Shown one piece after another: positions 1,191 through 63,805 of a DNA stretch of 64,000 nucleotides. This stretch comes from Escherichia coli (GTDB lineage Bacteria > Pseudomonadota > Gammaproteobacteria > Enterobacterales > Enterobacteriaceae): NCBI RefSeq assembly GCF_029227855.1, contig NZ_CP074356.1. One strand, given 5' to 3'. Every line of letters begins with the position of its first letter. The first letter of the stretch is position 1. The position numbers and the translations under genes are program-made. The notes under the pieces are model-generated. The model did not search any database, was not told the origin of the DNA, and saw nothing but the letters and a program-made list of their open reading frames with translations.

Positions 1191-1805
1191 TTATCTGTTT
1201 GAGCCTAAAGGGATCTCAGGGTCTGGCTCATGAGTAATTCTGTTTCGTAAATCTCTGCGAATAATTTCAATGGACCAGAACCAGACTAAATGTCCAAAAA
1301 TTTCAGAAACATTCTCATACCACGGGAGATCAAACAGAGGTGGCGTCAGTCCCATGAGAGGGAATGAAATCATATGAACAAAAAGTTGGGCTAAAGCACC
1401 TGCCAGTAAGCCCTGCCAGAGTTTAATTTTTGGAAATACTTCAGCGACCACACAATAACCGACAGCAAACACTATCGAAAAGATAATGTGCGTAACACCA
1501 ACCCAGTTAAAGACATGCCCGGCAAAGGTATAAACAGCCGCATTGGGATCTGTCAGCCCCAACCAGTCTCGAAGAAAAATATACGGAGGATTGAGAAAAT
1601 TACGGGAGCAATCAATTTGCCCAGCAGCCCTGATTAATGATTCCGGGCCACACGCTGCATTAAACATATCCACCGGGCTACGTGGCGGCAATGGAACTTC
1701 AGCCCCCCACTTCACAAATGCGGAAACAACGCCAGCAATCAGCCCAATGAATGCAGCAAGACCATAACGTCTGCGGTTCGGTGGAGTTTGTTCAAATATA
1801 TTCAT
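1191..1805 (-). CDS. yagU: Inner membrane protein YagU (DUF1440 family)
   Basis: 204 aa hydrophobic protein; conserved position next to paoA. Confidence 0.75.
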
Positions 1806-2210
1806 ATCTACCCTGCTTGTACCATTATGTTATACACCTCTTCAGGAGTATTCATAAAATAAGACAAATGTAAAGAACTGTATTGTTTTGTATAATGCAA
1901 TGGTGACTAATCGCCAATGAATATAAGCACCATCATTTCTCCCTATTTTTATATTAAAAGTGACAACGATTTACAGGGTGATGCTGAGCTGACAATCACA
2001 GGTTTCCTTATCGGTTTTTGCATCGCACAACTAAAGCAATAAACTAGCTCCCGTCATCGGCGAATATGAATTAATTAGCCGGGCTCATAGCTGCATTCGC
2101 GTTTTAAGAATAATCCTCCTGCTCTCACCGACTATGCTTAACGTTTAAAAAAGCATCAGCACTCTCGCAACGCACTCTTATTTTCCCCTTTAGAATACCG
2201 GAGGCCTGGT

Positions 2211-2900
2211 ATGAGCAACCAAGGCGAATACCCCGAAGATAATCGGGTTGGGAAGCACGAGCCGCACGATTTTAGTTTGACCCGTCGCGATCTGATTAAA
2301 GTCAGCGCCGCAACGGCGGCGACCGCCGTGGTTTATCCTCATTCTACGCTTGCGGCAAGCGTTCCGGCAGCTACACCCGCGCCAGAGATAATGCCCCTGA
2401 CACTTAAGGTGAACGGCAAAACCGAGCAGTTGGACGTTGATACCCGAACCACGCTACTGGACGCTTTGCGTGAAAATCTGCATCTGATCGGTACCAAGAA
2501 AGGTTGCGATCACGGACAGTGCGGAGCCTGTACCGTGCTGGTCAATGGTCGAAGGCTTAATGCCTGCCTGACGCTTGCAGTCATGCATCAGGGGGCCGAG
2601 ATCACCACCATTGAAGGCCTGGGTTCACCAGACCATCTTCATCCTATGCAGGCGGCCTTTATCAGACATGATGGCTTCCAGTGCGGCTACTGCACCTCCG
2701 GGCAAATTTGCTCATCAGTAGCGGTGCTAAAAGAGATTCAGGACGGCATTCCCAGTCACGTCACGGTCGATTTGGTTTCCCCTCCAGAAAGAACTGCCGA
2801 TGAGATCCGTGAACGTATGAGCGGCAACATCTGTCGCTGTGGTGCATACGCTAACATCCTTGCCGCCATTGAAGACGCTGCGGGGGAGATAAAATCATGA
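2211..2900 (+). CDS. paoA: Periplasmic aldehyde oxidoreductase, 2Fe-2S ferredoxin subunit PaoA
   Basis: 229 aa; twin-arginine signal LTRRDLIK; two 2Fe-2S Cys clusters ([16 protein letters not shown]...CRCG). Confidence 0.9.
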
Positions 2901-3853
2901 AGGCGTTTACCTATGAACGTGTGAACACCCCTGCCGAGGCGGCACTTAGTGCTCAGCGCGTACCCGGCGCAAAATTTATCGCGGGCGGGACCAATCTGCT
3001 GGACCTGATGAAGCTGGAAATTGAAACGCCCACCCACCTTATCGATGTGAACGGGCTCGGGCTCGATAAGATTGAAGTGACCGACGCGGGTGGGCTGCGC
3101 ATCGGCGCACTGGTACGGAACACCGACCTGGCGGCTCACGAGCGCGTGCGTCGTGATTATGCGGTACTCTCCCGCGCCCTGCTCGCTGGCGCGTCTGGTC
3201 AGTTACGTAATCAGGCAACCACCGCAGGTAATCTGCTCCAGCGCACGCGCTGCCCCTATTTTTACGACACCAATCAGCCCTGCAATAAGCGCCTGCCCGG
3301 GAGCGGCTGCGCGGCACTTGAAGGCTTTAGCCGTCAGCACGCGGTGGTAGGCGTAAGCGAAGCCTGCATTGCCACCCATCCGAGCGATATGGCGGTCGCA
3401 ATGCGGTTGCTGGATGCGGTAGTGGAAACCATCACGCCGGAGGGAAAGACTCGCAGTATCACACTGGCTGATTTTTATCACCCTCCGGGAAAAACGCCGC
3501 ACATTGAAACCGCCCTGCTTCCCGGTGAGCTTATCGTTGCGGTGGCATTACCTCCGCCGCTCGGCGGAAAACATATCTACCGCAAGGTGCGCGATCGCGC
3601 CTCCTACGCCTTTGCCCTGGTATCGGTCGCGGCGATTATTCAGCCTGACGGCAGCGGGCGCGTCGCGCTGGGCGGAGTAGCACATAAGCCCTGGCGCATT
3701 GAGGCTGCGGATGCTCAGCTATCCCAGGGGGCGCAGGCCGTGTATGACGCGCTGTTCGCCAGCGCCCATCCCACCGCTGAAAACACCTTTAAACTCCTGT
3801 TGGCGAAGCGAACGCTTGCCTCCGTACTGGCTGAAGCGAGGGCACTGGCATGA
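2897..3853 (+). CDS. paoB: Periplasmic aldehyde oxidoreductase, FAD-binding subunit PaoB
   Basis: 318 aa; FAD-binding fold motif [11 protein letters not shown]; 4-nt overlap with paoA. Confidence 0.9.
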
Positions 3854-29523: not shown

Positions 29524-30387
29524 TTATTCTTGCTCCAGCATCGCATTCACCCACGCGTCGAGGTTGGCGAAGGTCGGTTTAGATGCCAGATGCAGCAGCT
29601 TACGCCCGGCGTCCACCGCCAGCAGGGTCGGTTTGCCGCCTGCCTGCGCCACCAGCACGGTGCGCACGCATTCCAGCAAAGAATGTTCCGCCCGTGCCTG
29701 TTGTTCCATGGCGTTGGCAAGCGGGTCCATCAGGCAGTAGCAGATAAAGACGCCTAAAAACGTCCCCACCAGAGCCGCCGCCACTTTCAGGCCAATCAGG
29801 GCGATAGATCCATCAATCGACTGCATGGTGATGATGATGCCCAGCACCGCCGCGCAAATACCAAATCCCGGCATCGCTTCGGCAGTACGTTGCAGCGAGC
29901 GCGACGGCGTTAACAGGGACTCTTCCGCGGTGTCCAGTTCCTGATCGAGAGTGCCTTCCAGTTCATGGGCGTCAATCTTGCCCATCGCCATCAGGCGAAA
30001 GTTATCGGCAATAAAGGTCACCAGCCGCTTCTGGGTTAACACCAGCGGGTATTTCTGGAAAACGGTGCTCTCTTCCGGCTGCTCAATATGCTGATCCAGC
30101 ATGCGCAGGCCGCCGTTTTGTACCATTTCAAGCAACTCATACAGGCACATTAATAGCTGACGCTGAAACTCCGGCCCGAGCTGTTTTTTACTGATCACGC
30201 CTTTAATTTGATGGGCAATCTCTTTCAGCACATGTTTCGGGTTACCAATAATCATCGCCCCAAAACCGGCACCCAAAATAATGATCATCTCCGCCGGTTG
30301 CCAGATAGCCACTAATTGCCCGCCCGCTTCAAAATAACCGCCAAATACGCAGCCGAGCACCACCAGTAAACCTAATATTTTTTGCAT
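29524..30387 (-). CDS. lafT: Lateral flagellar motor stator protein LafT (MotA/PomA-like)
   Basis: 287 aa, four TM segments, MotA-like. Confidence 0.85.
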   Translation of the reverse strand: MQKILGLLVVLGCVFGGYFEAGGQLVAIWQPAEMIIILGAGFGAMIIGNPKHVLKEIAHQIKGVISKKQLGPEFQRQLLMCLYELLEMVQNGGLRMLDQHIEQPEESTVFQKYPLVLTQKRLVTFIADNFRLMAMGKIDAHELEGTLDQELDTAEESLLTPSRSLQRTAEAMPGFGICAAVLGIIITMQSIDGSIALIGLKVAAALVGTFLGVFICYCLMDPLANAMEQQARAEHSLLECVRTVLVAQAGGKPTLLAVDAGRKLLHLASKPTFANLDAWVNAMLEQE

Positions 30388-30399
30388 GATTTCTTCACT

Positions 30400-31116
30400 T
30401 TAATTCGGATAGACAAAATCACGAATTTTCTGCGCGATCTGTTTATTCAGTTGACAAATTCGGGCCTCGGTTAGCCCTAATACCAGCGCAATCTCTTTGA
30501 GATTCATCTCATGCTGGTAATACATGGAGAGGATCAGTTGCTCTTTTTCGCTTAATAGTGAAAGCGCGTGTTGCAGCATTTGCTGGGTGACAAACTGATC
30601 TTCCAGTTCCCTGCCAGCAAGTGGAATGCCTGGCCCTTCACCGTTCAGCAGTTCGTCCAGGCTGGCGAGCGTTTCCGCCCCTTCCAGTTGCTGATATTCG
30701 AGATAATCTTCATGCGAAATCCCTTCCACGGCCAGTTCTGACCACTCCGGTTCGTGCCCCAGTTTTTTGCGCGTCTCACGAATCAGATCTTTCATCTGAT
30801 GATATTTCTGTCGCAGCTGGCGCGGTCGCCAGTCGAGAGCGCGCAGCTCATCCAGGATCGCGCCGCGAATCCGGTGCACGGCATAGCCGGCAAAACCTTC
30901 GTCCGGCAGCCCATAGCGACGAATGGCATTAAGCAGCCCCATTAACGCCGTTTGTTCCATATCCTGACGATCAATAATGCAATTACACTGCGGGGCAAGT
31001 TGCCGCACCACTTTACGCACCAGTGGTAAATAGGCCTGCAAGTAGTGGCTCTCCTGCTGCGGGGTTAATACCGGCGTGGCAGCAAATTCTTCTGACTCGA
31101 ATACATCCTGTAGCAT
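30400..31116 (-). CDS. lafS: Lateral flagellar sigma-28-type sigma factor (FliA-like)
   Basis: 238 aa; sigma-70 family regions 2 and 4. Confidence 0.8.
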   Translation of the reverse strand: MLQDVFESEEFAATPVLTPQQESHYLQAYLPLVRKVVRQLAPQCNCIIDRQDMEQTALMGLLNAIRRYGLPDEGFAGYAVHRIRGAILDELRALDWRPRQLRQKYHQMKDLIRETRKKLGHEPEWSELAVEGISHEDYLEYQQLEGAETLASLDELLNGEGPGIPLAGRELEDQFVTQQMLQHALSLLSEKEQLILSMYYQHEMNLKEIALVLGLTEARICQLNKQIAQKIRDFVYPN

Positions 31117-31135
31117 GTTTATATCCGCCTGGTGA

Positions 31136-31603
31136 TTACTGGAAGACCACTTTTTTCACCAGCAAATCCTTATACGGTGCGCTCATTTTGCGACGTTGAA
31201 GATCTTTCTTTAACGCATCCGAAATCAGTTTGCGGATGGCGGATATTTTCATGCCGCGCAAATCTTCAAATTTCATTTCCGTCAGGCATTCAACTGCAAT
31301 ACTTTGATACAGCGGCTCCTGATGTTTTATTTTTTCCGCTTCTTTGTCACTGGCAACCACCATCACTAATTCCGCCGACAAATAATGGTCCGCGCCGTTG
31401 TTGTCATGCAAAGTGACAATGGTTTCCGGCAACGTCACAAACACGCTTTTGCTTTCATCCAGGGTTTCCACCGTTTCCGTCTGCGCGGCGGCAGTCGGTT
31501 TTCCTTTTCCGGCATAATGATGCCAGACACCCCATCCAGCTCCGGCCCCCACCACCAACGCCAGAACGGCGCTGACCACGCCCGCCACCACGATTTTCTT
31601 CAT
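31136..31603 (-). CDS. lafF: FliL-like flagellar basal-body-associated protein
   Basis: 155 aa; N-terminal TM helix plus FliL-like periplasmic domain. Confidence 0.7.
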   Translation of the reverse strand: MKKIVVAGVVSAVLALVVGAGAGWGVWHHYAGKGKPTAAAQTETVETLDESKSVFVTLPETIVTLHDNNGADHYLSAELVMVVASDKEAEKIKHQEPLYQSIAVECLTEMKFEDLRGMKISAIRKLISDALKKDLQRRKMSAPYKDLLVKKVVFQ

Positions 31604-34716: not shown

Positions 34717-34851
34717 TGATGACTCCGGGTAACGATGTCAGGTTAATGGCAAAAGGCGTGCCAATATTTTTTATGTGAATAATCAATAGATTGAAAAACA
34801 GGCGGAAATGACGTTTCCGGTCTGGCGGAAAAAAGCCTGCCGCAGAAAGCA

Positions 34852-34920: not shown

Positions 34921-35835
34921 TTACTGCAGCAGGCTGGAAACCATGCTGGACATGCTGTTGGACTGTTTCAGCATGGTGATGCCGGTCTGCATCAGCACCT
35001 GTTGTTTGGTCATGTTGGACGCTTCCGTCGCGTAGTCGGTATCCATGATGTTACCGATAGCAACTTCGGTGTTGTCCTGCATGCTGGTCAGGTTATTAGC
35101 CGTGTCGTTCAGACGGTTGATAGACGCACCCAGTTTGGACTGGATCTGAGACACGTCATCCATCGCGGTAGAGATGCTGGTGATCATCTGGTTAGCCGAG
35201 CCAGACGCAGTCAGCTCAGTACCGCCAGAAACGCCTGCGGTGCCCGTGGTGTCAGCCTGATCCGCACTAAAGGAGCTGCTGATAGCAGAAAGATCAGTCA
35301 CCAGGGTATTCAGCTGGCTTGAAATATTCACGGTCATGGTGTCGGAAGATTCCGCGCCCACCTGGAAAGTTACCGCGCTCTGGAACAGACCGTCAGTACC
35401 GGTGTTGCTGGTGCCGGAAACACCGAACAGGTTGGTGCCGCCGTAAGTGGTGTTTTGCAGCATGTCAGACATCTGCTGGCCCAGTTCGTCGTATTCGTCC
35501 TGCATCGCCTGCAGGTCGTCGTCGCTGTAGGTGCCGTTCGCTGCCTGAGTTGACAGGTCTTTCATACGACCCAGCACGTCAGACATTTCGTCGAACATGC
35601 TGTCAGCGGTTTGCAGCATCGCGGTGGCATCATTGATGTTGCTCAGCGCCACCCCCATACCGCTGGACTGTGCTGTCAGACGGTTAGCAATTTGTTTGCC
35701 TGCGGCGTCATCGGCAGAAGAGTTAATCCGGTTACCTGTCGCCAGGCGTTCCATAGATGTAGACAGAGAAGAGCTGCTTTTGCTGATTGCATTAACGGCG
35801 GCCATTGAGGCGTTATTGGTGTTAATAGATAACAT
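34921..35835 (-). CDS. lafA: Lateral flagellin
   Basis: Flagellin N-terminus MLSINTNNASMAAVNAI and C-terminal ...SLLQ; RBS AAGGAG; the track ORF has a 22-codon upstream extension. Confidence 0.9.
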   Translation of the reverse strand: MLSINTNNASMAAVNAISKSSSSLSTSMERLATGNRINSSADDAAGKQIANRLTAQSSGMGVALSNINDATAMLQTADSMFDEMSDVLGRMKDLSTQAANGTYSDDDLQAMQDEYDELGQQMSDMLQNTTYGGTNLFGVSGTSNTGTDGLFQSAVTFQVGAESSDTMTVNISSQLNTLVTDLSAISSSFSADQADTTGTAGVSGGTELTASGSANQMITSISTAMDDVSQIQSKLGASINRLNDTANNLTSMQDNTEVAIGNIMDTDYATEASNMTKQQVLMQTGITMLKQSNSMSSMVSSLLQ

Positions 35836-36271
35836 GATACTGCTCCTTGGGATTAATCGTTTTCGTTTCGATACCCTGTAAAAACGACACCTCGGGAGCA
35901 AACTTAAAACCGCCGTTAAAATTTTTTCGCCACGTATTATCCGATGCCACTTTTAGCTAAAAAAAAACAGAGTTTAAATTCAGATAAAAAGATTATTAGC
36001 AATATCTGCCACATGGCCAGGTATCAAAATATGTCTTTATCAATTGCTTGATATAGTTAAGATTATCATCAATTACCGCGTTTTCTTATCAATGTACTGA
36101 TGCCAAAATTTACATTGCGTTGCAAATAGTACACATTTGGCTATTGTACCTGTCCTGTCATTTCGTTACATTTCCACGCTATATAGTGATTAAGAATAAT
36201 CTTATCACCATAAAATTATTAATTATCACGCAGAAAAATCATCTTCTCAGGGACGTATAAGACTGTGCTTT

Positions 36272-38213: not shown

Positions 38214-39167
38214 TTAGAGAACGCTGAACAAATTCAACTCACTCACTTTCGAGTAAGTCTTGAGGGTAGCTTCCATTGCTACTTCCAGTCCGGTAAAGGT
38301 GATCGACGCCGGGCCGTAATCGAGATCCTGTAATGAACCAATCAGCTCATCATTAGAGGTAGAGATATCGGTCTGCGCATCGCTCAACATCGACATGGTG
38401 TTCTGCGTCTCGCCGAGCGACGCAATCGAGGCGTTGAGGTTATCCGAGGCGGTGTCCACCACATCAACGGCGTTCTGAATATCGCTCTGCACCTGCGGAT
38501 CGGCCGGGTCAACGTTTGGGTCTTGCAACTCCTGGGAGAGCGAATTGAGCGTGTTGAGCACATCTAAATTGCTGCCGAAGAAATCGCTCGCCGCCACGTT
38601 GGTATCCACTTCCACGCCGTTCGACACCGTGGTCTGGCGGTGGTCGCTGTTGCCCTGATAGCTGTAGCTATCGGTCACGCCGTCGCCGTCATCGTCCACC
38701 GCCACAATCGGCGGCTGATCGTTGATAGTGCCGCCAAACACGTAGTGCCCGTCTTCGTCCTGATAGTTCAGCGCCGCGACCATTGATTCGGTGAGCGACT
38801 CAATATCCTGCCCGAGACTTGCGAGCGAATCGGCGGTATTGGTGCCATTCGCCGCTTCCAGCAGGTCGTCGCGCACCGCCAGCAGGCTGTTGTTGACGCC
38901 ATCAAGGATTGATTCCTGCTGACTTAACCCCGCCGACGCGGAGTCGATATTGCTCTGATACTGCTCAATCGCCGACTGTTGGCGGTTCAACTGGGTGATG
39001 CGCGTGGCGGCGATCGGGTCATCCGACGGCTGCAAAATCTGCTTGCCGGTTGCCATCTGCTCGACCACATGCGCCAGATCGCCGGAGAGATTATTAAAAC
39101 TTTGCGTCATCGAGACGTAGGTTTGTTGGGTGGTTACTTGCATTTTCGCGCTCCCGCTTAGCTGCAC
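38214..39167 (-). CDS. lfgL: Flagellar hook-associated protein 3 (FlgL-like)
   Basis: 317 aa; flagellin-like terminal helices; follows the FlgK-like gene. Confidence 0.75.
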   Translation of the reverse strand: MQLSGSAKMQVTTQQTYVSMTQSFNNLSGDLAHVVEQMATGKQILQPSDDPIAATRITQLNRQQSAIEQYQSNIDSASAGLSQQESILDGVNNSLLAVRDDLLEAANGTNTADSLASLGQDIESLTESMVAALNYQDEDGHYVFGGTINDQPPIVAVDDDGDGVTDSYSYQGNSDHRQTTVSNGVEVDTNVAASDFFGSNLDVLNTLNSLSQELQDPNVDPADPQVQSDIQNAVDVVDTASDNLNASIASLGETQNTMSMLSDAQTDISTSNDELIGSLQDLDYGPASITFTGLEVAMEATLKTYSKVSELNLFSVL

Positions 39168-40534
39168 ATTTCCAGCACCGAATCGAAAATCTCGGCCCCG
39201 GCGGAAATGACTTTCAGATTGGCTTCATAAATTTGTTGATAGGTGATCAGGTTAACCGCCTCTTCGTCCATGCTGACGCCGCTGACGCTGCTCTGCTGGT
39301 TTTGCGCTGCGGAATAGACATTGGACGCGGCATCGACTTCCGTCTGGTTTTGCTGGCTGTAAATGCCGATATTGCTGATGATTGACGAGCACGCCTGCCC
39401 GACCGTCACGCTGCCGAGGTTGGCTATTTCCAGCGGTTCGGTGGAGATATTGATCAGCGCCTGGAGGTTGTCGCTGTTGCCGCTTTCGTCCGGCGAACTG
39501 GAGAACGCCAGCTCATCGGCGGTGATATCCGGGTTAACGGTCAGCGGGCCATCGGCGTTGCTGGCGTCATAAATAAACAGCGGCTCGCCGGGGTTACCGT
39601 TGAGATCGTAGCCCTGCGCCAGCTGGTTGTTAACCGCATCGGCGAACTGCGACGCCATACTGTTGATGGTGTCGGTCAGCGGCGTCAGCACGTCGTTTTG
39701 ATAATCAAACAGTGCGCCTAATGAACCGCCGGTGTCGGTAGTCATCGTCGAGGTGGTGCCAGCGAAAGTCAGCGACATGGTCGGCGTGCCGTCGGCGTTG
39801 GTTTCCAGCTCGATGGTCGAGCTTTGCTGCCCGCTCACCAGCGGTTGACCGTTTTTCAGGGTAACGTTGTAGTTGCCCTGGTCGTCGATATTGACCTGCA
39901 CATCCATCATGCCGCTCAGTTCTTCCACCATCTGATCGCGGGCGTCGTACAGCGCGGAGGCGTTATCGCCGTTGGCTTCGGCCTGAGCGATTTGCTGGTT
40001 ATAGCTGGCGATGCCGCTGGTGAGCGTGTTGATTTGCGACACCATTGCCTGCTGCTGGCTGATGAGTTCCGTGCTTTGCGAGTCGATGTAATCCAGCGTG
40101 TTGTCGATACGCAGCGACAGCGCCCCGGCTTCGCTGATCACCTGCTCGCGCAGGGCGGAATCATCGGGGCTGGTGGTCGCTTCGTTAAGGGCGGCGAAGA
40201 AGTTATCGAACCCGCCGCTCAGGCTGCTGTTATCGTCGTTCAGTACCGCTTCCAGTTGCGTGAGATACCCCTGCTGGGTGCTGTAATAGCCGTAATCACT
40301 GGCGGCATACCACACCTGATTCACCTGATACTGGTTAGAGACGCGGCGAATGCTGTCGACCTGCACGCCGTTACCGGCGCTGTTCGGCGAACCACCGCTG
40401 GCGCCGATGGTGCTGATCTCCGCCACCTGGCGGGTGTAGCCCGTGGTCATGGCGTTGGCGGTGTTTTGCGCCGTGACGTTCAGCTCCACCTGCGCGGTTG
40501 ATGCGCCGCTGTAGCCGATGTTAATCATATCCAT
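39158..40534 (-). CDS. lfgK: Flagellar hook-associated protein 1 (FlgK-like)
   Basis: 458 aa; conserved N-terminal rod/hook-family motif. Confidence 0.8.
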   Translation of the reverse strand: MDMINIGYSGASTAQVELNVTAQNTANAMTTGYTRQVAEISTIGASGGSPNSAGNGVQVDSIRRVSNQYQVNQVWYAASDYGYYSTQQGYLTQLEAVLNDDNSSLSGGFDNFFAALNEATTSPDDSALREQVISEAGALSLRIDNTLDYIDSQSTELISQQQAMVSQINTLTSGIASYNQQIAQAEANGDNASALYDARDQMVEELSGMMDVQVNIDDQGNYNVTLKNGQPLVSGQQSSTIELETNADGTPTMSLTFAGTTSTMTTDTGGSLGALFDYQNDVLTPLTDTINSMASQFADAVNNQLAQGYDLNGNPGEPLFIYDASNADGPLTVNPDITADELAFSSSPDESGNSDNLQALINISTEPLEIANLGSVTVGQACSSIISNIGIYSQQNQTEVDAASNVYSAAQNQQSSVSGVSMDEEAVNLITYQQIYEANLKVISAGAEIFDSVLEMCS

Positions 40535-40610
40535 GTTGGATCCTTACCGGTAAATCGTGCCGGTTAAAAGCGGCGTTAGGTTGGGGATTCTTAAGTGGGA
40601 GGTGGTGCCC

Positions 40611-46694: not shown

Positions 46695-47030
46695 TTATTT
46701 CCCTTCAATGGCCTCTCTGATGCCGCTGATTTGCAGATTCAGGAAGGTCAGACTGCTTTGATAATCCATACTATTTTGTGAAAACCGCGCCTGTTCGCTG
46801 TTCAGCTCCACGGTGTTGCCATCTTCCGACGGCTGCATCGGCACGCGGTACTGGACATCCACCGCCGCGTTATTTGCCCGTTGCATCTCCCTGGCAAAAT
46901 CAATATCTTTAGCCTTGAAATTTGGCGTATCGACGTTCGCCAGATTCGCAGTCAGTAGCTCGGTCCTCTCAAGACGTAACTTCACTGCCTGCGGATGTAC
47001 TCCCAATGCCTGTTGAAAACTGATCCCCAT
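46695..47030 (-). CDS. lfgB: Flagellar proximal rod protein (FlgB-like); upstream in-frame ATG at 47060 is probably not used
   Basis: Rod motif LTANLANVDTPNFKAKDIDFA; start at 47030 has an RBS and lies downstream of the sigma-54-type promoter. Confidence 0.8.
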   Translation of the reverse strand: MGISFQQALGVHPQAVKLRLERTELLTANLANVDTPNFKAKDIDFAREMQRANNAAVDVQYRVPMQPSEDGNTVELNSEQARFSQNSMDYQSSLTFLNLQISGIREAIEGK

Positions 47031-47066
47031 TTCCTGCGTCACTCCTGCTTCAATCCGCATACGCTA

Positions 47067-47082
47067 GGCAATTACCGTGCCA
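47067..47082 (-). promoter_or_regulatory. Sigma-54 (-24/-12) promoter of the lfgB rod/hook operon
   Basis: Minus strand reads TGGCACGGTAATTGCC, a near-perfect match to TGGCACG-N4-TTGC, about 35 nt upstream of the proposed lfgB start. Confidence 0.55.
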
Positions 47083-47090
47083 TTTTTTAA

Positions 47091-47849
47091 GTGACTGATG
47101 AGAAAGGGTTTATGAGTTTTCAATTTTGCAGGCGGAAGTTTTATTTCCTCCTGGCGCTGGCCTTACCGGGCTACGCCGCCGTCTACCCCGTGCAACACAG
47201 CGCGCGGGAACAAGTCAACGCCCAGGTGCTGAATGCCGCGAGCCAGCAGATTGAATCGCTGGCGCAGCAGCGGCAGTGGCATGACTATCGCTACACCTTT
47301 AAGGTCTACATTCCCTCGCAGATTGCGACCGCTGCGCCCTGTGCTGCGGCACCCGGCGTCACGCTGACGTCGCCTGTGGACATCGCCCTCAACCGCATGA
47401 ACTTCACCGTCAGTTGCCCGCAAAGCTGGCAGATGAACGTGGCGGTGCGCCCGGATGTGCTGGTGCCGGTGGTGATGACAAAGTCACTGGTTGCCCGCGA
47501 TACGCCGCTCACGGCGAATGATGTGGAGCTGAAGCCCTACAACGTCAGCGCCCAGCGTCGCGATGTGTTGATGGAGCTTGATGACGCAATTGGTTTAAGC
47601 AGTAAGCACGCGCTGCAGCCGGGCAGGCCAATCACCAAAGAAGAGCTGGTCTCTCCGGTACTGATCGAGCGCGATCAGCCGGTGATGATTGTTTACCAGA
47701 ACGCGGGGATCACCGCCTCGATGCCCGGCGTGGCGCTGAAAAATGGCCGCAAAGGCGAGATGGTGAAAGTACGTAACGCAAGCAGCCAGCGGGTCATCAG
47801 CGCGATGGTGGCGGAAAGCGGCGTGGTGACAACGGTAAGCGCGGAGTAA
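47091..47849 (+). CDS. lfgA: Flagellar P-ring assembly chaperone (FlgA-like); alternative start at 47112
   Basis: 252 aa with signal peptide; divergent from lfgB. Confidence 0.75.
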   Translation: MTDEKGFMSFQFCRRKFYFLLALALPGYAAVYPVQHSAREQVNAQVLNAASQQIESLAQQRQWHDYRYTFKVYIPSQIATAAPCAAAPGVTLTSPVDIALNRMNFTVSCPQSWQMNVAVRPDVLVPVVMTKSLVARDTPLTANDVELKPYNVSAQRRDVLMELDDAIGLSSKHALQPGRPITKEELVSPVLIERDQPVMIVYQNAGITASMPGVALKNGRKGEMVKVRNASSQRVISAMVAESGVVTTVSAE

Positions 47850-47863
47850 TTTGCGCAGGCGAT

Positions 47864-47871
47864 TAAAGTTT
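47864..47871 (+). promoter_or_regulatory. Candidate sigma-28-type -35 element upstream of lfgM
   Basis: Exact TAAAGTTT about 60 nt upstream of the lfgM start; no matching GCCGATAA-type -10 found at the standard spacing. Confidence 0.25.
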
Positions 47872-47929
47872 TGCCGCCTGTTAACCGCTTTACCGGAGTA
47901 ACACACCTTCAAACAGAGACGAGGTTGCG

Positions 47930-48205
47930 ATGAAAATCACCCCGACTATGCCAGGCAATCGCCCGACAGCCACAACGGCAGGCTCCAGCCAGCCGAGCAA
48001 AACTACGGCGACCACCACGACGCTGAGCGCCGACGACATTACCCAGGCGGGATTGCAGTCTGCCCAGCAAACGCTGAACGACCAGCAAGAGAGCGATATC
48101 GACAGCGATAAAGTGGCGCAAATGCAGGCGATGCTGGCCTCCGGCAGCCTGCAAGTGGACACCGAACAGTTAGCCAGCGACATGCTGAGTTTTTTCCAGA
48201 ACTAA
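47930..48205 (+). CDS. lfgM: Anti-sigma-28 factor (FlgM-like)
   Basis: 91 aa Ser/Thr/Gln-rich protein immediately before the FlgN-like gene. Confidence 0.7.
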   Translation: MKITPTMPGNRPTATTAGSSQPSKTTATTTTLSADDITQAGLQSAQQTLNDQQESDIDSDKVAQMQAMLASGSLQVDTEQLASDMLSFFQN

Positions 48206-48217
48206 GAGGCCGATGAA

Positions 48218-48646
48218 GTGAGTATCCGGTTACAACAGGTGAAGGCGTTGTTGCAGGGAATTCGTGACGATGACGCGCTGTATGATTCCCTGCGCGAACT
48301 TCTCCAGCGTCAGCGGATCTGCATGATTCGCCGCGCCAGCGAAGAGCTGCTGGCGGTAAACGAGGAGATAACCCATCACTATGAGCAGTTGCATGGGCAT
48401 AGCCATCAGCGGCACAGCCTGCTGAAAATGCTTAATGTCAGTGTAAATCGTGACGGTCTGGCGCAGGTTTTTGCCTGGCTTCCGGCGGTACAAAAAGCGG
48501 CAGCACAACAGTTGTGGCAACGCCTTGAGCAAAAAGCGGAACGCTGCAAAGCCTACAACGACAAAAACGGCGAGCTGTTGATTCGCCAGTATGAATTTAT
48601 TCAGTCTTTTTTAGGTAGCGAAGCTGATTTTCTCTATCAGGAATAA
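48218..48646 (+). CDS. lfgN: Flagellar export chaperone (FlgN-like)
   Basis: 142 aa helical protein after the FlgM-like gene. Confidence 0.65.
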   Translation: MSIRLQQVKALLQGIRDDDALYDSLRELLQRQRICMIRRASEELLAVNEEITHHYEQLHGHSHQRHSLLKMLNVSVNRDGLAQVFAWLPAVQKAAAQQLWQRLEQKAERCKAYNDKNGELLIRQYEFIQSFLGSEADFLYQE

Positions 48647-48773
48647 CGCGAATACCTTCCCCCATCGCGGAAATGGATTTTCCGCCTGATTCACAATCCT
48701 TTGTTTTTGATTATAAAAATTCCCGGCACGCTTATTGCACATTCCGCAAAGTAATAAAGACTGGAAGCCACCT

Positions 48774-49703
48774 ATGAGTTTTATTGAATGTTACGAACCG
48801 GAATACGTGCGCAATTTTATGACGCAATATCCCGATTCGCCTTTGTACATCCGCAAGGTGTGGAAAAACGAGATTCGCCAGAGCCTGATGCTGACAGAGC
48901 CAGAAAGCTGCGAAGCGGTGCTCAACGATGCCAGGGCCTTTGATTTACAGCTCACCTACCGCCCGGCGGAAGATAATGCCGCAGAACTCTCCGCGCGCGA
49001 TGCGATAGTAAACCAGGTCATTTTGAGCACCCTTACGCTCCCCGATTTACCCCCGGAGCTTTCACTGTACGCCGTCGGGATTTTGCTCTCCCGCGCCAGC
49101 AAAATGCCGGGCAGAGACGGAGATATTCTTGCCCGCTTGACGACGCTGCCACAGGCGCTGGCCGCTCATGCACAAAAAGGCACGCTACAGGCACAGTTCG
49201 CCCAGTTGCCGCCTGTACCACAGCTGGCGCGCCAACTGGTGACGCTGCTCGGCAGTTGTGCGTTTGACTGGTCGATTCTGCCGGAAAGCCCGCGCAAAAC
49301 TTCCCTGCCGTTGCAGATGCCTTTGCTGGCGCTACATGACGCCAACAGCGAAGCCCTGTTGCAACAGCAGCTTCAGGCACAGTGGCAAACCACCTGGCAA
49401 CAGCATTTTGCCACCGCGCCCTGGATGATGTGTAACTGGCTGATTTACCGCGTTTACCATGAGGTGATTGGACAGGCAGACGGAGCAGATTATTGCCCGC
49501 TGGTGTGCGATTTTTATTTTATCCGCACGTTAATCAGTTTATGGACGCTGGATGGTTCTCCGCTGCGGAAGGAGGATATTTTCGCCCTTTTTGCGGTGTT
49601 TGAACGCTGGCGAGAGAGTGAAAATGCGCTGTTTATTCGCCAGCAAATTCAGTCGTTATGTGCCGCCGACCCGCTGCTTTCAGCGTTTTCGCTGCTGACG
49701 TGA
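48774..49703 (+). CDS. Flag-2-associated hypothetical protein
   Basis: 309 aa from MSFIECYEPE with RBS GGAAG; no recognisable domain; track ORF starts at 48735. Confidence 0.5.
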   Translation: MSFIECYEPEYVRNFMTQYPDSPLYIRKVWKNEIRQSLMLTEPESCEAVLNDARAFDLQLTYRPAEDNAAELSARDAIVNQVILSTLTLPDLPPELSLYAVGILLSRASKMPGRDGDILARLTTLPQALAAHAQKGTLQAQFAQLPPVPQLARQLVTLLGSCAFDWSILPESPRKTSLPLQMPLLALHDANSEALLQQQLQAQWQTTWQQHFATAPWMMCNWLIYRVYHEVIGQADGADYCPLVCDFYFIRTLISLWTLDGSPLRKEDIFALFAVFERWRESENALFIRQQIQSLCAADPLLSAFSLLT

Positions 49704-49720
49704 AGCCGCTCTCGATCGGT

Positions 49721-49751
49721 CCCCTCGCCCCTTCGGGGAGAGGGTGAGGGG
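49721..49751. repeat. GC-rich imperfect palindrome (CCCCTCGCCCC..GGGGAGAGGGTGAGGGG)
   Basis: Shares the GGGGAGAGGGT..GAGGGG motif, in inverted orientation, with the element at 59434-59472. Confidence 0.4.
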
Positions 49752-49809
49752 CAAAGCACGCACAGCCCTCCTTACCCATCAAATTAACCCCTTAACTCAC
49801 CTAAACACC

Positions 49810-59280: not shown

Positions 59281-59433
59281 AGGGTGAACGATATAAGTAG
59301 CGACAGAAAACAGGATGTTCTGAAGCGTATCACCGGCGGGATTAACAAGTTCGAATTAAACGATAATAAAAATATTATTTGATGGTAAACAATGAGTTAG
59401 ATATTAATACTGTTAATTGCGACATCTGTGATG

Positions 59434-59472
59434 CCCCCTCACCCTAACCCTCTCCCCGGATGGGGCTAGGGG
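59434..59472. repeat. GC-rich imperfect palindrome (CCCCCTCACCCTAACCCTCTCCCC..GGGGCTAGGGG)
   Basis: Inverted copy of the motif at 49721-49751, in the lafK-lfiM divergent intergenic region. Confidence 0.4.
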
Positions 59473-59652
59473 ACAGACCGCAGACTGATTGGCGAAAATC
59501 ACTCCCATTAAGCAATTAATCGATTAATTATTTTTTCATCCTATTAATAATTTGCCCCTTTCACTCCCCCTCTATTTAATACCTCACCTTGTGTCACTGC
59601 CGGATTTGCGTGCACAAAATCGCCCATACCATTACAGCAGAGAAAGTAAGCC

Positions 59653-61893: not shown

Positions 61894-62676
61894 ATGCGCA
61901 CAAGCGACGTTACGCAACTGATGGATCTGGCGCTGGGGCTGTGGTTTCCCTTCGTGCGCATTATGGCGTTTCTGCGCTATGTGCCGGTGCTGGATAACAG
62001 CGCCCTGACCGTGCGCGTGCGGATTATTTTGTCGCTGGCGCTGGCAATCATCATCACGCCGTTGATCCCCCATCCCATTCCCCACGATCTGCTTTCACTC
62101 AACAGCCTGATCCTGACGGTGGAGCAAATTTTATGGGGCATGTTGTTCGGGCTGATGTTTCAGTTTCTGTTTCTCGCGCTACAACTGGCCGGACAAATTC
62201 TCTCGTTCAATATGGGGATGAGCATGGCGGTGATGAACGACCCGAGCAGCGGCGCATCGACCACCGTGCTGGCGGAGTTAATCAACGTCTATGCGATCCT
62301 GCTGTTTTTTGCCATGGACGGGCATCTGCTGCTGGTAAGCGTGCTGTATAAGGGCTTCACCTACTGGCCGATTGGTAACGCGCTGCATCCGCAAACCCTG
62401 CGCACCATCGCGCTGGCCTTTAGCTGGGTGCTGGCGTCCGCATCACTGCTGGCGCTGCCGACCACCTTCATCATGCTGATTGTGCAGGGCTGCTTTGGCC
62501 TGCTCAACCGCATCGCGCCGCCGCTGAACCTCTTTTCGCTCGGCTTTCCCATCAACATGCTGGCGGGGCTGGTTTGCTTTGCCACCCTGCTCTACAACCT
62601 GCCGGATCACTATCTGCATCTGGCGAATTTTGTGTTGCAGCAACTCGACGCGCTGAAAGGTCACTATGGCGGATAG
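61894..62676 (+). CDS. lfiR: Flagellar export apparatus protein (FliR-like)
   Basis: 260 aa multi-TM protein from MRTSDVTQL; track ORF starts at 61843. Confidence 0.8.
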   Translation: MRTSDVTQLMDLALGLWFPFVRIMAFLRYVPVLDNSALTVRVRIILSLALAIIITPLIPHPIPHDLLSLNSLILTVEQILWGMLFGLMFQFLFLALQLAGQILSFNMGMSMAVMNDPSSGASTTVLAELINVYAILLFFAMDGHLLLVSVLYKGFTYWPIGNALHPQTLRTIALAFSWVLASASLLALPTTFIMLIVQGCFGLLNRIAPPLNLFSLGFPINMLAGLVCFATLLYNLPDHYLHLANFVLQQLDALKGHYGG

Positions 62677-63805
62677 CAGCAGCGAAGAAAAAACAGAGAA
62701 ACCCTCGGCGCAAAAGCTGCGTAAAGCGCGTGAAGAGGGGCAACTGCCGCGCTCGAAGGATATGGGGCTGGCAGCGAGCCTGTTTGCAGCGTTTGTGGTG
62801 ATCTCCAGCAGTTTTCCGTGGTATGCCGATTTTGTGCGCGAGAGTTTTATCAGCGTGCATCAGTACGCGCAGGAGATTAATAACCCGCAGGTGATCGGTC
62901 AGTTTCTGCGCCACCACCTGTTAATTCTCGGCAAGTTTATCCTTACGTTGCTGCCGATGCCCGCCGCCGCGCTGCTCTCTTCGCTGGTGCCGGGCGGCTG
63001 GCTGTTTCTGCCGAAAAAAATCCTCCCGGATTTCAGCAAAATTAGCCCGTTAAAAGGCATTGGGCGTCTGTTTTCCAGTGAACATCTGGCGGAAACGGGA
63101 AAGATGACGGTGAAGTCTGCCGTGGTGCTGGTGATGCTGTGGGTAAGCCTGCGCAATAACTTTGCCGCCTTTCTCGGCCTGCAGGCGCTGCCGTTCAAAC
63201 TGGCGATGAATGACGGTTTGTCGCTCTACGCCAGCGTGATGCGCAACTTTGTCATCCTGTTTATTTTCTTTGCGCTTCTCGACGTGCCGCTGGCGAAAGC
63301 CCTGTTCACCAAAGGGCTGAAGATGACCAAACAAGAACTGAAAGAAGAGTACAAAAATCAGGAAGGCAAGCCGGAAGTGAAGGCGCGCGTGCGGCGGCTG
63401 CAACGGCAGCTGGCGATGGGGCAAATTCGCAAAGTGGTGCCAAAGGCCAACGTGGTGATCACCAACCCGACCCACTACGCCGTGGCGTTGCAGTATGACC
63501 AGTCGCGTGCCGCCGCGCCGTTTGTGGTGGCGAAAGGCACCGATGAAATCGCCCTCTATATTCGCCAGGTCGCTGCTGAAAGTCAGGTGGAAGTGGTCGA
63601 GTTCCCGCGGCTGGCGCGCTCGGTTTACTATACCACTCAGGTGAATCAGCAAATTCCTTTTCAGCTTTACCGGGCTATCGCCCACGTTCTGACCTACGTC
63701 CTGCAAATGAAACACTGGCGCGAGGGCGCACAGCCGCGCCCGGCCCTGAACAGACATATTTCCATTCCCAAAGAGGTGCTTAAACTGGATGGCGAAAACA
63801 ACTAA
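62666..63805 (+). CDS. lfhB: Flagellar export apparatus switch protein (FlhB-like)
   Basis: 379 aa; NPTH autocleavage motif (VVITNPTHYAVAL). Confidence 0.9.
   Translation: MADSSSEEKTEKPSAQKLRKAREEGQLPRSKDMGLAASLFAAFVVISSSFPWYADFVRESFISVHQYAQEINNPQVIGQFLRHHLLILGKFILTLLPMPAAALLSSLVPGGWLFLPKKILPDFSKISPLKGIGRLFSSEHLAETGKMTVKSAVVLVMLWVSLRNNFAAFLGLQALPFKLAMNDGLSLYASVMRNFVILFIFFALLDVPLAKALFTKGLKMTKQELKEEYKNQEGKPEVKARVRRLQRQLAMGQIRKVVPKANVVITNPTHYAVALQYDQSRAAAPFVVAKGTDEIALYIRQVAAESQVEVVEFPRLARSVYYTTQVNQQIPFQLYRAIAHVLTYVLQMKHWREGAQPRPALNRHISIPKEVLKLDGENN

Follow-up and report, generated by a model that had tools for sequence, protein, structure and literature searches.

[quoted passage not shown]

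The intergenic gap in front of lfgM, the gene for the anti-sigma-28 factor of the second flagellar system of Escherichia coli (Flag-2), contains a two-block element at 47864-47892 (+ strand) that probably serves the lfgM-lfgN operon as its class-3 (late) promoter, with the lateral sigma factor LafS as the sigma subunit of the RNA polymerase that reads it. Coordinates refer throughout to the whole 64-kb stretch of DNA that was analysed (the window). The candidate promoter, PlfgM, would be made up of a -35 element TAAAG (lateral form TTAAG), a 15-nt gap and a -10 element ACCGCTTT (lateral form GYCGYTTT), with transcription starting near 47899, and the same type of promoter would drive lafA (flagellin) and lfgKL (hook-filament junction).

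RefSeq annotation and the open reading frames agree that the window carries the E. coli Flag-2 (lateral flagella) locus. A genome comparison revealed 100% identity to E. coli JNEC-KY178 over bases 47000-49000, a stretch present in 1279 of 5426 complete E. coli genomes. The order of genes is lafU, lafT, lafS (30400-31116, - strand), lafF to lafB, lafA for the lateral flagellin (34921-35835, -) with lafZ adjacent, then lafW, lfgL, lfgK (39158-40534, -) and lfgJ to lfgB (to 47030, -). These are followed by lfgA for the P-ring chaperone (47112-47849, +; FlgA by family models, TAA stop at 47847-47849), lfgM (91 aa, 47930-48205, +), lfgN for an FlgN-type export chaperone (48218-48646, +; PF05130, 69.9 bits), a lysine-N-methylase gene (lafV), a glycosyltransferase gene, lfiJ to lfiE, lafK, and lfiM to lfhA. 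Gene coordinates of the best-matching RefSeq record were replaced by the open reading frame coordinates of the window; the shift between the two is 1 base left of about 47000 and about 15 bases around lfhB. The first-pass annotation of this DNA had called the gene behind the element FlgM-like, and the family models agree: LfgM is assigned to FlgM with 39.9 bits against PF04316 (cut-off 25) and 49.7 bits against TIGR03824 (cut-off 40.75). The lfgM-lfgN gap measures 12 nt, and lfgN is probably co-transcribed with lfgM. At the other end of the locus, lafT starts 12 nt past lafS, and lafF and lafS are separate genes with a 19-nt gap (30400-31603); many E. coli database entries (P0001-P0017) call the two as one 400-aa open reading frame with an FliL domain and a sigma factor.

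The upstream block, TAAAGTTT, occupies 47864-47871 on the + strand, 15 nt past the lfgA stop codon, and its first and last bases lie 66 and 58 nt from the lfgM ATG (47930), in agreement with the distance of about 60 nt given earlier. Its core TAAAG (47864-47868) would fall at positions -35 to -31. A 12-nt spacer, TGCCGCCTGTTA (47872-47883, +), separates it from the -10 element ACCGCTTTA (47884-47892, +), which would occupy -15 to -7 with C at -11; the 8-mer part of this element, ACCGCTTT (47884-47891), would span -15 to -8. The -11 register was set by aligning GYCG with GCCG, with the canonical (-15)GCCGATAA(-8) as reference (PMC12784957). With the end of the -10 8-mer placed at -8, as in canonical sigma-28 promoters, transcription is predicted to start at about 47899 +/-2 (47897-47901, +), which would give lfgM a 5' UTR of about 31 nt, with a predicted GAGG Shine-Dalgarno sequence at about 47921.

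The site had at first been described as an exact sigma-28 -35 hexamer that lacks a matching -10. The canonical GCCGATAA is indeed absent at N11, where the DNA reads AACCGCTT (1/8 matches); one base further on, at N12, it reads ACCGCTTT (4/8 matches to GCCGATAA), which is a -10 of the lateral type, so the description held for the canonical box and failed for the lateral one. The -35 match was likewise correct in its letters, although TAAAG is better read as a one-base variant of the lateral TTAAG, placed one position upstream of the canonical register, and it is because of this offset that no -10 was seen at N11. The substitution that turns TTAAG into TAAAG at the lfgM site is common to Escherichia and Citrobacter. 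As a bare 8-mer, TAAAGTTT is no better than chance: the window contains two copies where 1.50 are expected, the second of them inside dinB, and at least two copies occurred in 40 of 100 shuffles.

We then compared all Flag-2 intergenic regions, each oriented toward its downstream gene, and found three alike, those upstream of lafA (tTTAAGTTT-n11-GTCGTTTTTA), lfgK (cTTAAGAAT-n12-GCCGCTTTTA) and lfgM (tTAAAGTTT-n12-ACCGCTTTA), with T(T/A)AAG-N14/15-GYCGYTTT in common. The sites before lafA and lfgK, named PlafA (gttTTAAGTTT-n11-GTCGTTTTTAC; 35878-35910, -) and PlfgK (cacTTAAGAAT-n12-GCCGCTTTTAA; 40564-40597, -), lie about 43 nt upstream of lafA and 30 nt upstream of lfgK, and both are kept across genera. 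Among the three E. coli sites PlfgM is the weakest, having A in place of T in its -35 and in place of G at -15. The first-pass annotation had suggested that the lateral sigma factor may recognise a divergent -10 and that the upstream regions of lafA, lafT and lfgM be aligned for a consensus. The shared T(T/A)AAG-N15-GYCGYTTT bears out such a -10, whose dependence on LafS would follow from the reading given below; as for the alignment, lafA and lfgM do share the motif, while the region upstream of lafT has no match at 8 bits or more and lfgK supplies the third member.

A lateral weight matrix (matrix 1) was derived from 32 sites, none of them from Escherichia; scanned over both strands of the 64-kb window, it ranked PlfgK (27.5 bits), PlafA (25.7 bits) and PlfgM (21.3 bits) first to third; the fourth match reached 12.3 bits and the best of 30 dinucleotide shuffles 20.1 bits. 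As a guard against circularity, a second matrix was built from lafA and lfgK sites only, with no lfgM sites (matrix 2), and it gave PlfgK 28.0, PlafA 24.8 and PlfgM 14.5 bits, the last again at rank 3 in the window. A score of 14.5 bits is ordinary for a 128-kb search, in which the simulated maximum averages 13.6, and it corresponds to a region-wise p of about 6e-4 within the 150 nt upstream of lfgM. In 14 of the 14 genera tested, the top match of matrix 2 upstream of lfgM was the orthologous site, with scores of up to 26.8 bits and a region-wise p below 6e-5 in several genera. Under matrix 2, PlfgM stands only with the positional prior and with conservation.

Conservation was followed through a genome scan with LfgI, which yielded 74 loci, among them about 30 Enterobacterales Flag-2 loci whose LfgM is between 97% and about 32% identical to that of the window. 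All of these approximately 30 loci have the two blocks, T(T/A)AAG and G(C/T)CG(C/T)TTT(T)A, 14-15 nt apart, before lfgM, lfgK and lafA, and the sequence around the blocks is not alignable between genera. Before lfgM the motif was found in Escherichia, Pseudocitrobacter, Citrobacter, Phytobacter, Enterobacter, Leminorella, Rosenbergiella, Tatumella and others, and the position orthologous to the PlfgM -35 reads TTAAG or TAAAG in about 25 species, with TTAAG in most genera. Matches of at least 17 bits in the 21-kb Enterobacterales loci lie almost solely before lfgM, lfgK and the flagellin gene or genes; two matches depart from this pattern, one being an additional, weaker site at 161 nt before lafA (L015) and the other a site within lfgA (L029). 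Of the alphaproteobacterial loci recovered with the same query, 27 of 28 have no match of at least 17 bits, and the sole match (L056, 17.2 bits) does not precede any mapped flagellar gene. A closer footprint alignment of eight sequences (four E. coli strains, three other Escherichia species and Pseudocitrobacter) showed CGATTAAAGTTTTGCC and ACCGCTTTAC to be invariant in 8/8, with variation in the spacer, the upstream flank and the 5' UTR. The spacer reads TGCCCCACATTC in E. whittamii, and its length is held at 11-12 nt between species. In Escherichia sp. MOD1-EC7003 (L006), a gene for a 474-aa C5 DNA cytosine methyltransferase sits between lfgA and lfgM (1640-3600), homology to the window restarts a few bases before the -35, and the promoter blocks are kept directly past the insertion, as expected if lfgM there carries its own promoter. 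Conservation among these relatives is in part shared descent.

These data bear on whether the element is a promoter at all. The first-pass annotation had allowed that the 8-mer is there by chance, in which case lfgM would be transcribed only by read-through from the lfgA promoter. Three results point that way: a bare TAAAGTTT is expected 1.5 times per window, no canonical -10 follows it, and the matrix 2 score of PlfgM is unremarkable genome-wide. However, chance would have to account for two blocks kept in about 25 species while their flanks diverged, for the same motif before lafA and lfgK, for region-wise p values that are about 6e-4 for the E. coli site and fall below 6e-5 in several genera, and for a promoter kept where an insertion splits lfgA from lfgM. 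We therefore regard a chance origin as extremely unlikely, in view of conservation and of the motif shared with lafA and lfgK. Toward lfgA itself we found no conserved sigma-54 or LafS-type promoter, the conserved sigma-54 box in the lfgB-lfgA gap pointing to lfgB. A scan of 46900-48400 for sigma-70 promoters and terminators returned no promoter and no terminator in the lfgA-lfgM gap (47850-47929), and folding of the RNA from 47850-47960 gave -22.2 kcal/mol with z = 0.03 against shuffles, i.e. no structure. A terminator or RNA element in the gap thus finds no support in the terminator scan or in this z of 0.03. Just before the lfgA start lies a block, TTTTAAGTGAyTGATGAGAAA (47078-47105, +), that is kept in Escherichia and Citrobacter and occurs in weaker versions elsewhere; possible roles are that of the lfgA promoter and that of a site for an activator or IHF acting on the divergent lfgB promoter.

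If PlfgM is a late promoter, the presence of a second flagellar system raises the question of which sigma factor reads it. The canonical sigma-28 promoter is TAAA-N15-GCCGATAA, and the P. aeruginosa open complex has (-15)GCCGATAA(-8) as its -10 and (-36)TCTAAAG(-30) as its -35, with the non-template A-11 flipped into sigma region 2 (PMC12784957). In the lateral motif TAAG-N15-GYCGYTTT, the GYCG block is as far from the -35 as is the canonical GCCG, but C or T stands at -11 in place of the flipped A-11 of GCCGATAA, and TTT in place of TAA. PlfgM itself has the TAAA(G) of a canonical FliA promoter, one base upstream of the canonical register, and at N11 it lacks GCCGATAA with the CGA core. A FliA matrix, derived from the 52 sites that ChIP-seq assigns to FliA in E. 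coli K-12 (PMC4183435 Table 2), gave 2.4 bits for PlfgM, 4.5 for PlafA and 9.0 for PlfgK, compared with a median of 17.1 for the ChIP sites and 26.2 for the Flag-1 flgMN promoter (TAAAGATT-N11-GCCGATAA). The reverse test showed the same separation, with the FliA sites at a median of -1.9 bits under the lateral matrix. A scan of the window for TAAAGTTT-N10-12-GCCGATAA found 12/16 at best and nothing convincing before any Flag-2 gene. Inside lafT there is a perfect canonical -10, GCCGATAAC (30001-30028, -), which has no -35, reaches 12.7 bits under the FliA matrix and is probably there by chance.

It follows that transcription of lfgM by the FliA of Flag-1 through the exact FliA-type -35, which would couple the two flagellar systems, is very unlikely. 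It is true that TAAAGTTT equals the FliA -35 consensus and that FliA tolerates varied -35 boxes and relies mainly on the -10 (PMC4183435 Table 2). Yet PlfgM scores only 2.4 bits against the median of 17.1 for ChIP-bound sites, its -10 lacks TAA and carries C at -11, a position taken by A in 48 of 52 FliA sites, its -35 is one base out of the canonical register, and most other genera have TTAAG rather than TAAAG. FliA accepts TTAAGTTT as a -35 at ycgR (PMC4183435), so that the discrimination between PlfgM and FliA sites lies in the -10. Because the -10 of PlfgM is without the CGA core, including the flipped -11 A needed by FliA, FliA should not fire PlfgM; LafS in turn should not fire FliA promoters, and the two promoter sets would thus be insulated from each other, as far as promoter sequences can indicate.

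The presumed reader of the three promoters is LafS, an intact lateral sigma factor of the FliA/WhiG family with 238 aa, encoded at 30400-31116 (-). It scores 444.9 bits against the NF009091 equivalog model (cut-off 339) and 196.2 against the canonical FliA model NF005413, below its cut-off of 201, and it matches the E. coli sigma-28 structure chain 6pmi_F at 7.6e-31. Relative to the sigma-28 factors of E. coli and P. aeruginosa, LafS keeps Y76, R80, D87, D93, R97 and Q228; at three DNA-contact positions (Pseudomonas numbering), the A/V, R and R of FliA are replaced by R95, Q101 and H104 in LafS and the proteins nearest to it. In the Pseudomonas sigma-28 structure (PMC12784957), R101 and R104 touch the template strand, at -14 and -12. 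When 121 representative sigma-28 sequences were compared, Q101 and H104 occurred together almost only in LafS-like top hits. Three further features, A224, C227 and a specificity loop shorter by one residue, looked clade-specific among 15 aligned sequences and proved not to be so among the 121 representatives. The differences at R95, Q101 and H104 are suggestive only as a basis of specificity.

In Plesiomonas, deletion of fliA_L lowers fliC_L, flgMN_L and flgKL_L, flgMN_L forms one FliA_L-dependent unit, and in EMSA FliA_L bound no promoter (PMC11242183). The fliC_L, flgKL_L and flgMN_L set matches the late set proposed here. To our knowledge, free sigma factors do not bind DNA, and the negative FliA_L EMSA therefore carries no information. 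We infer that LafS reads PlafA, PlfgK and PlfgM from their sigma-28-family layout, from their classic late targets and from the presence of a sigma-28 paralogue in the locus.

The sigma-54 boxes of the locus are distinct from these sites and located elsewhere. Exact boxes, TGGCAC-N5-TTGC, precede lfgB (47068-47082, -) and lafB (34749-34763, -), and a box with one mismatch, CGGCACGCTTATTGC, precedes lafV (48724-48738, +); the lfgB box is kept in 12 genera. An early/late split from LafK/sigma-54 to sigma-28 is the expected hierarchy (PMC3930126; PMC3658858). Around the lfgA-lfgM gap, between 47292 and 48504, there is no sigma-54 box with two or fewer mismatches. A G-rich palindromic repeat, CCCCTC..GGGGAGAGGGT(TA)GGGTGAGGGG, occurs in the lafV-glycosyltransferase gap (49720-49755) and in the lafK-lfiM gap (59430-59480); in two Pseudocitrobacter species (L003, L005) the same repeat lies just upstream of PlfgK, with the promoter undisturbed.

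That the two blocks are instead the site of another regulator, such as LafZ or LafK, or of a different sigma factor is highly improbable. The link to LafS is drawn indirectly, FliA_L of Plesiomonas bound no promoter in EMSA, and the locus encodes a regulator, LafZ, whose target may be such a site, all of which leaves room for this reading. In contrast, the layout is that of sigma-28 promoters, with two blocks at a fixed N15, 25-90 nt before start codons and always on the coding strand; TAAG and GCCG are common to it and the canonical sigma-28 consensus; the three targets are classic sigma-28 late genes that match the FliA_L regulon; the sigma-54 boxes lie elsewhere, and the sigma-70 scan was empty. 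A promoter read by LafS remains the preferred explanation.

The reading of PlfgM as a LafS promoter is also in keeping with other lateral systems. Studies of Vibrio, Aeromonas and Plesiomonas lead one to expect a class-3 promoter before lateral flgM. The lateral class III genes of V. parahaemolyticus, A. hydrophila and P. shigelloides stand under the same hierarchy, early LafK/sigma-54 followed by late lateral sigma-28, with the same late set (lafA/fliC_L, flgKL_L, flgMN_L), and the same -10 type is present in the lafA promoters of Aeromonas, Vibrio, Photobacterium and Shewanella. In V. parahaemolyticus, A. hydrophila and P. shigelloides the role of the lateral sigma factor has been tested, whereas for the E. 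coli locus it is deduced here from sequence. Plesiomonas in addition has fliD to lafTU under FliA_L, while in E. coli there is only the sigma-54 box before lafB. Outside the Enterobacterales, the motif precedes lafA in Shewanella (TTCAG..GTCGTTTTA), two Photobacterium species, Metapseudomonas otitidis, Aeromonas hydrophila (TCAAG-N15-GTCGCTTCT) and a Vibrio species (TTAAT-N15-TCCGCCTCT), and in some betaproteobacteria it precedes flagellin, flgM and flgK genes. The same motif, as TTAAG-N15-GYCGCYT (L032 16592/18521, L034 16489, L037 2871/11415, L038 2865/11415, L045 8735), was observed before the flagellins of Comamonas testosteroni, before a gene for an 89-aa FlgM-like protein and flgK in Craterilacuibacter, and before flgK of an uncultured proteobacterium. 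With the sites in Comamonas, Craterilacuibacter and the uncultured proteobacterium, the promoter type extends beyond 'lateral' systems, and outside the Enterobacterales, too, the motif appears to track the sigma clade. It is possible, though we put it forward with some doubt, that LafS and its relatives form a sub-family of sigma-28 in which R95/Q101/H104 co-occur with a GYCGYTTT -10 that has a pyrimidine at -11, where a flipped adenine is otherwise near-universal, and which would make the two flagellar sigma factors of one cell mutually orthogonal. Such a sub-family would range over the lateral systems of Enterobacterales, Vibrionaceae, Aeromonas and Shewanella and some betaproteobacterial flagellar systems.

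Whether a LafS-type promoter is active in this strain is a separate matter, as Flag-2 may be cryptic or defective in many strains of E. coli. Partial deletions or mutations of the locus are common among E. coli strains (PMC6993521), and lfhB (62666-63805 in the window; 44681-45819 in L001) is annotated as frameshifted in the best-matching RefSeq strain, in line with an inactive relic. In the window, however, lfhB is an intact 379-aa open reading frame, lafS, lfgM, lfgN and the three promoters are intact as well, and neither block varies among the eight aligned sequences, four from E. coli and four from relatives, which come from a region present in 1278 E. coli genomes. We consider a relic unlikely; it is in any case compatible with the LafS promoter proposed above, bearing on the activity of the element and not on its identity.

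PlfgM closely parallels the Flag-1 flgMN promoter of E. coli and Salmonella. Both stand directly upstream of the anti-sigma gene at the end of lfgA or flgA, both have the two-block layout of the sigma-28 family with a TAAAG -35, and both would place the anti-sigma factor under its own sigma factor, along with flagellin and flgKL. They differ in the -10, which is ACCGCTTT and not GCCGATAA in PlfgM, with a pyrimidine at the presumed -11 and a spacing one base longer, in the presumed reader, LafS as opposed to FliA, and in position, the Flag-1 flgMN promoter lying inside flgA and PlfgM in an intergenic gap. In the mechanism that we propose, LfgM would hold LafS until the hook-basal body exports LfgM, and the freed LafS would then fire PlafA, PlfgK and PlfgM, the last of which would replenish the anti-sigma factor. 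Since lfgM encodes the anti-sigma factor, PlfgM would close a negative feedback loop, with the same feedback logic as for flgM under FliA in Flag-1. The loop, the start site, the insulation of the two systems and LafS as the reader are all inferred from sequence.

In the open full-text literature covered by our searches, we found no description of a lateral sigma-28 consensus or of these motif strings, and a comparative paper on Flag-2 makes no mention of promoters (PMC6993521). If the consensus is already contained in the older Vibrio or Aeromonas papers, the present result amounts to the routine annotation of a known promoter class. For E. coli, it assigns a concrete candidate promoter and a predicted start to the anti-sigma gene of the second flagellar system, and the working consensus for three Flag-2 late promoters would allow the LafS regulon to be predicted in hundreds of Enterobacterales genomes. 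It also offers a natural system in which to ask how a -10 without A at -11 is melted by a group-3 sigma factor, and a possible explanation of how two sigma-28 paralogues may work in one cell without cross-activating each other's late genes.
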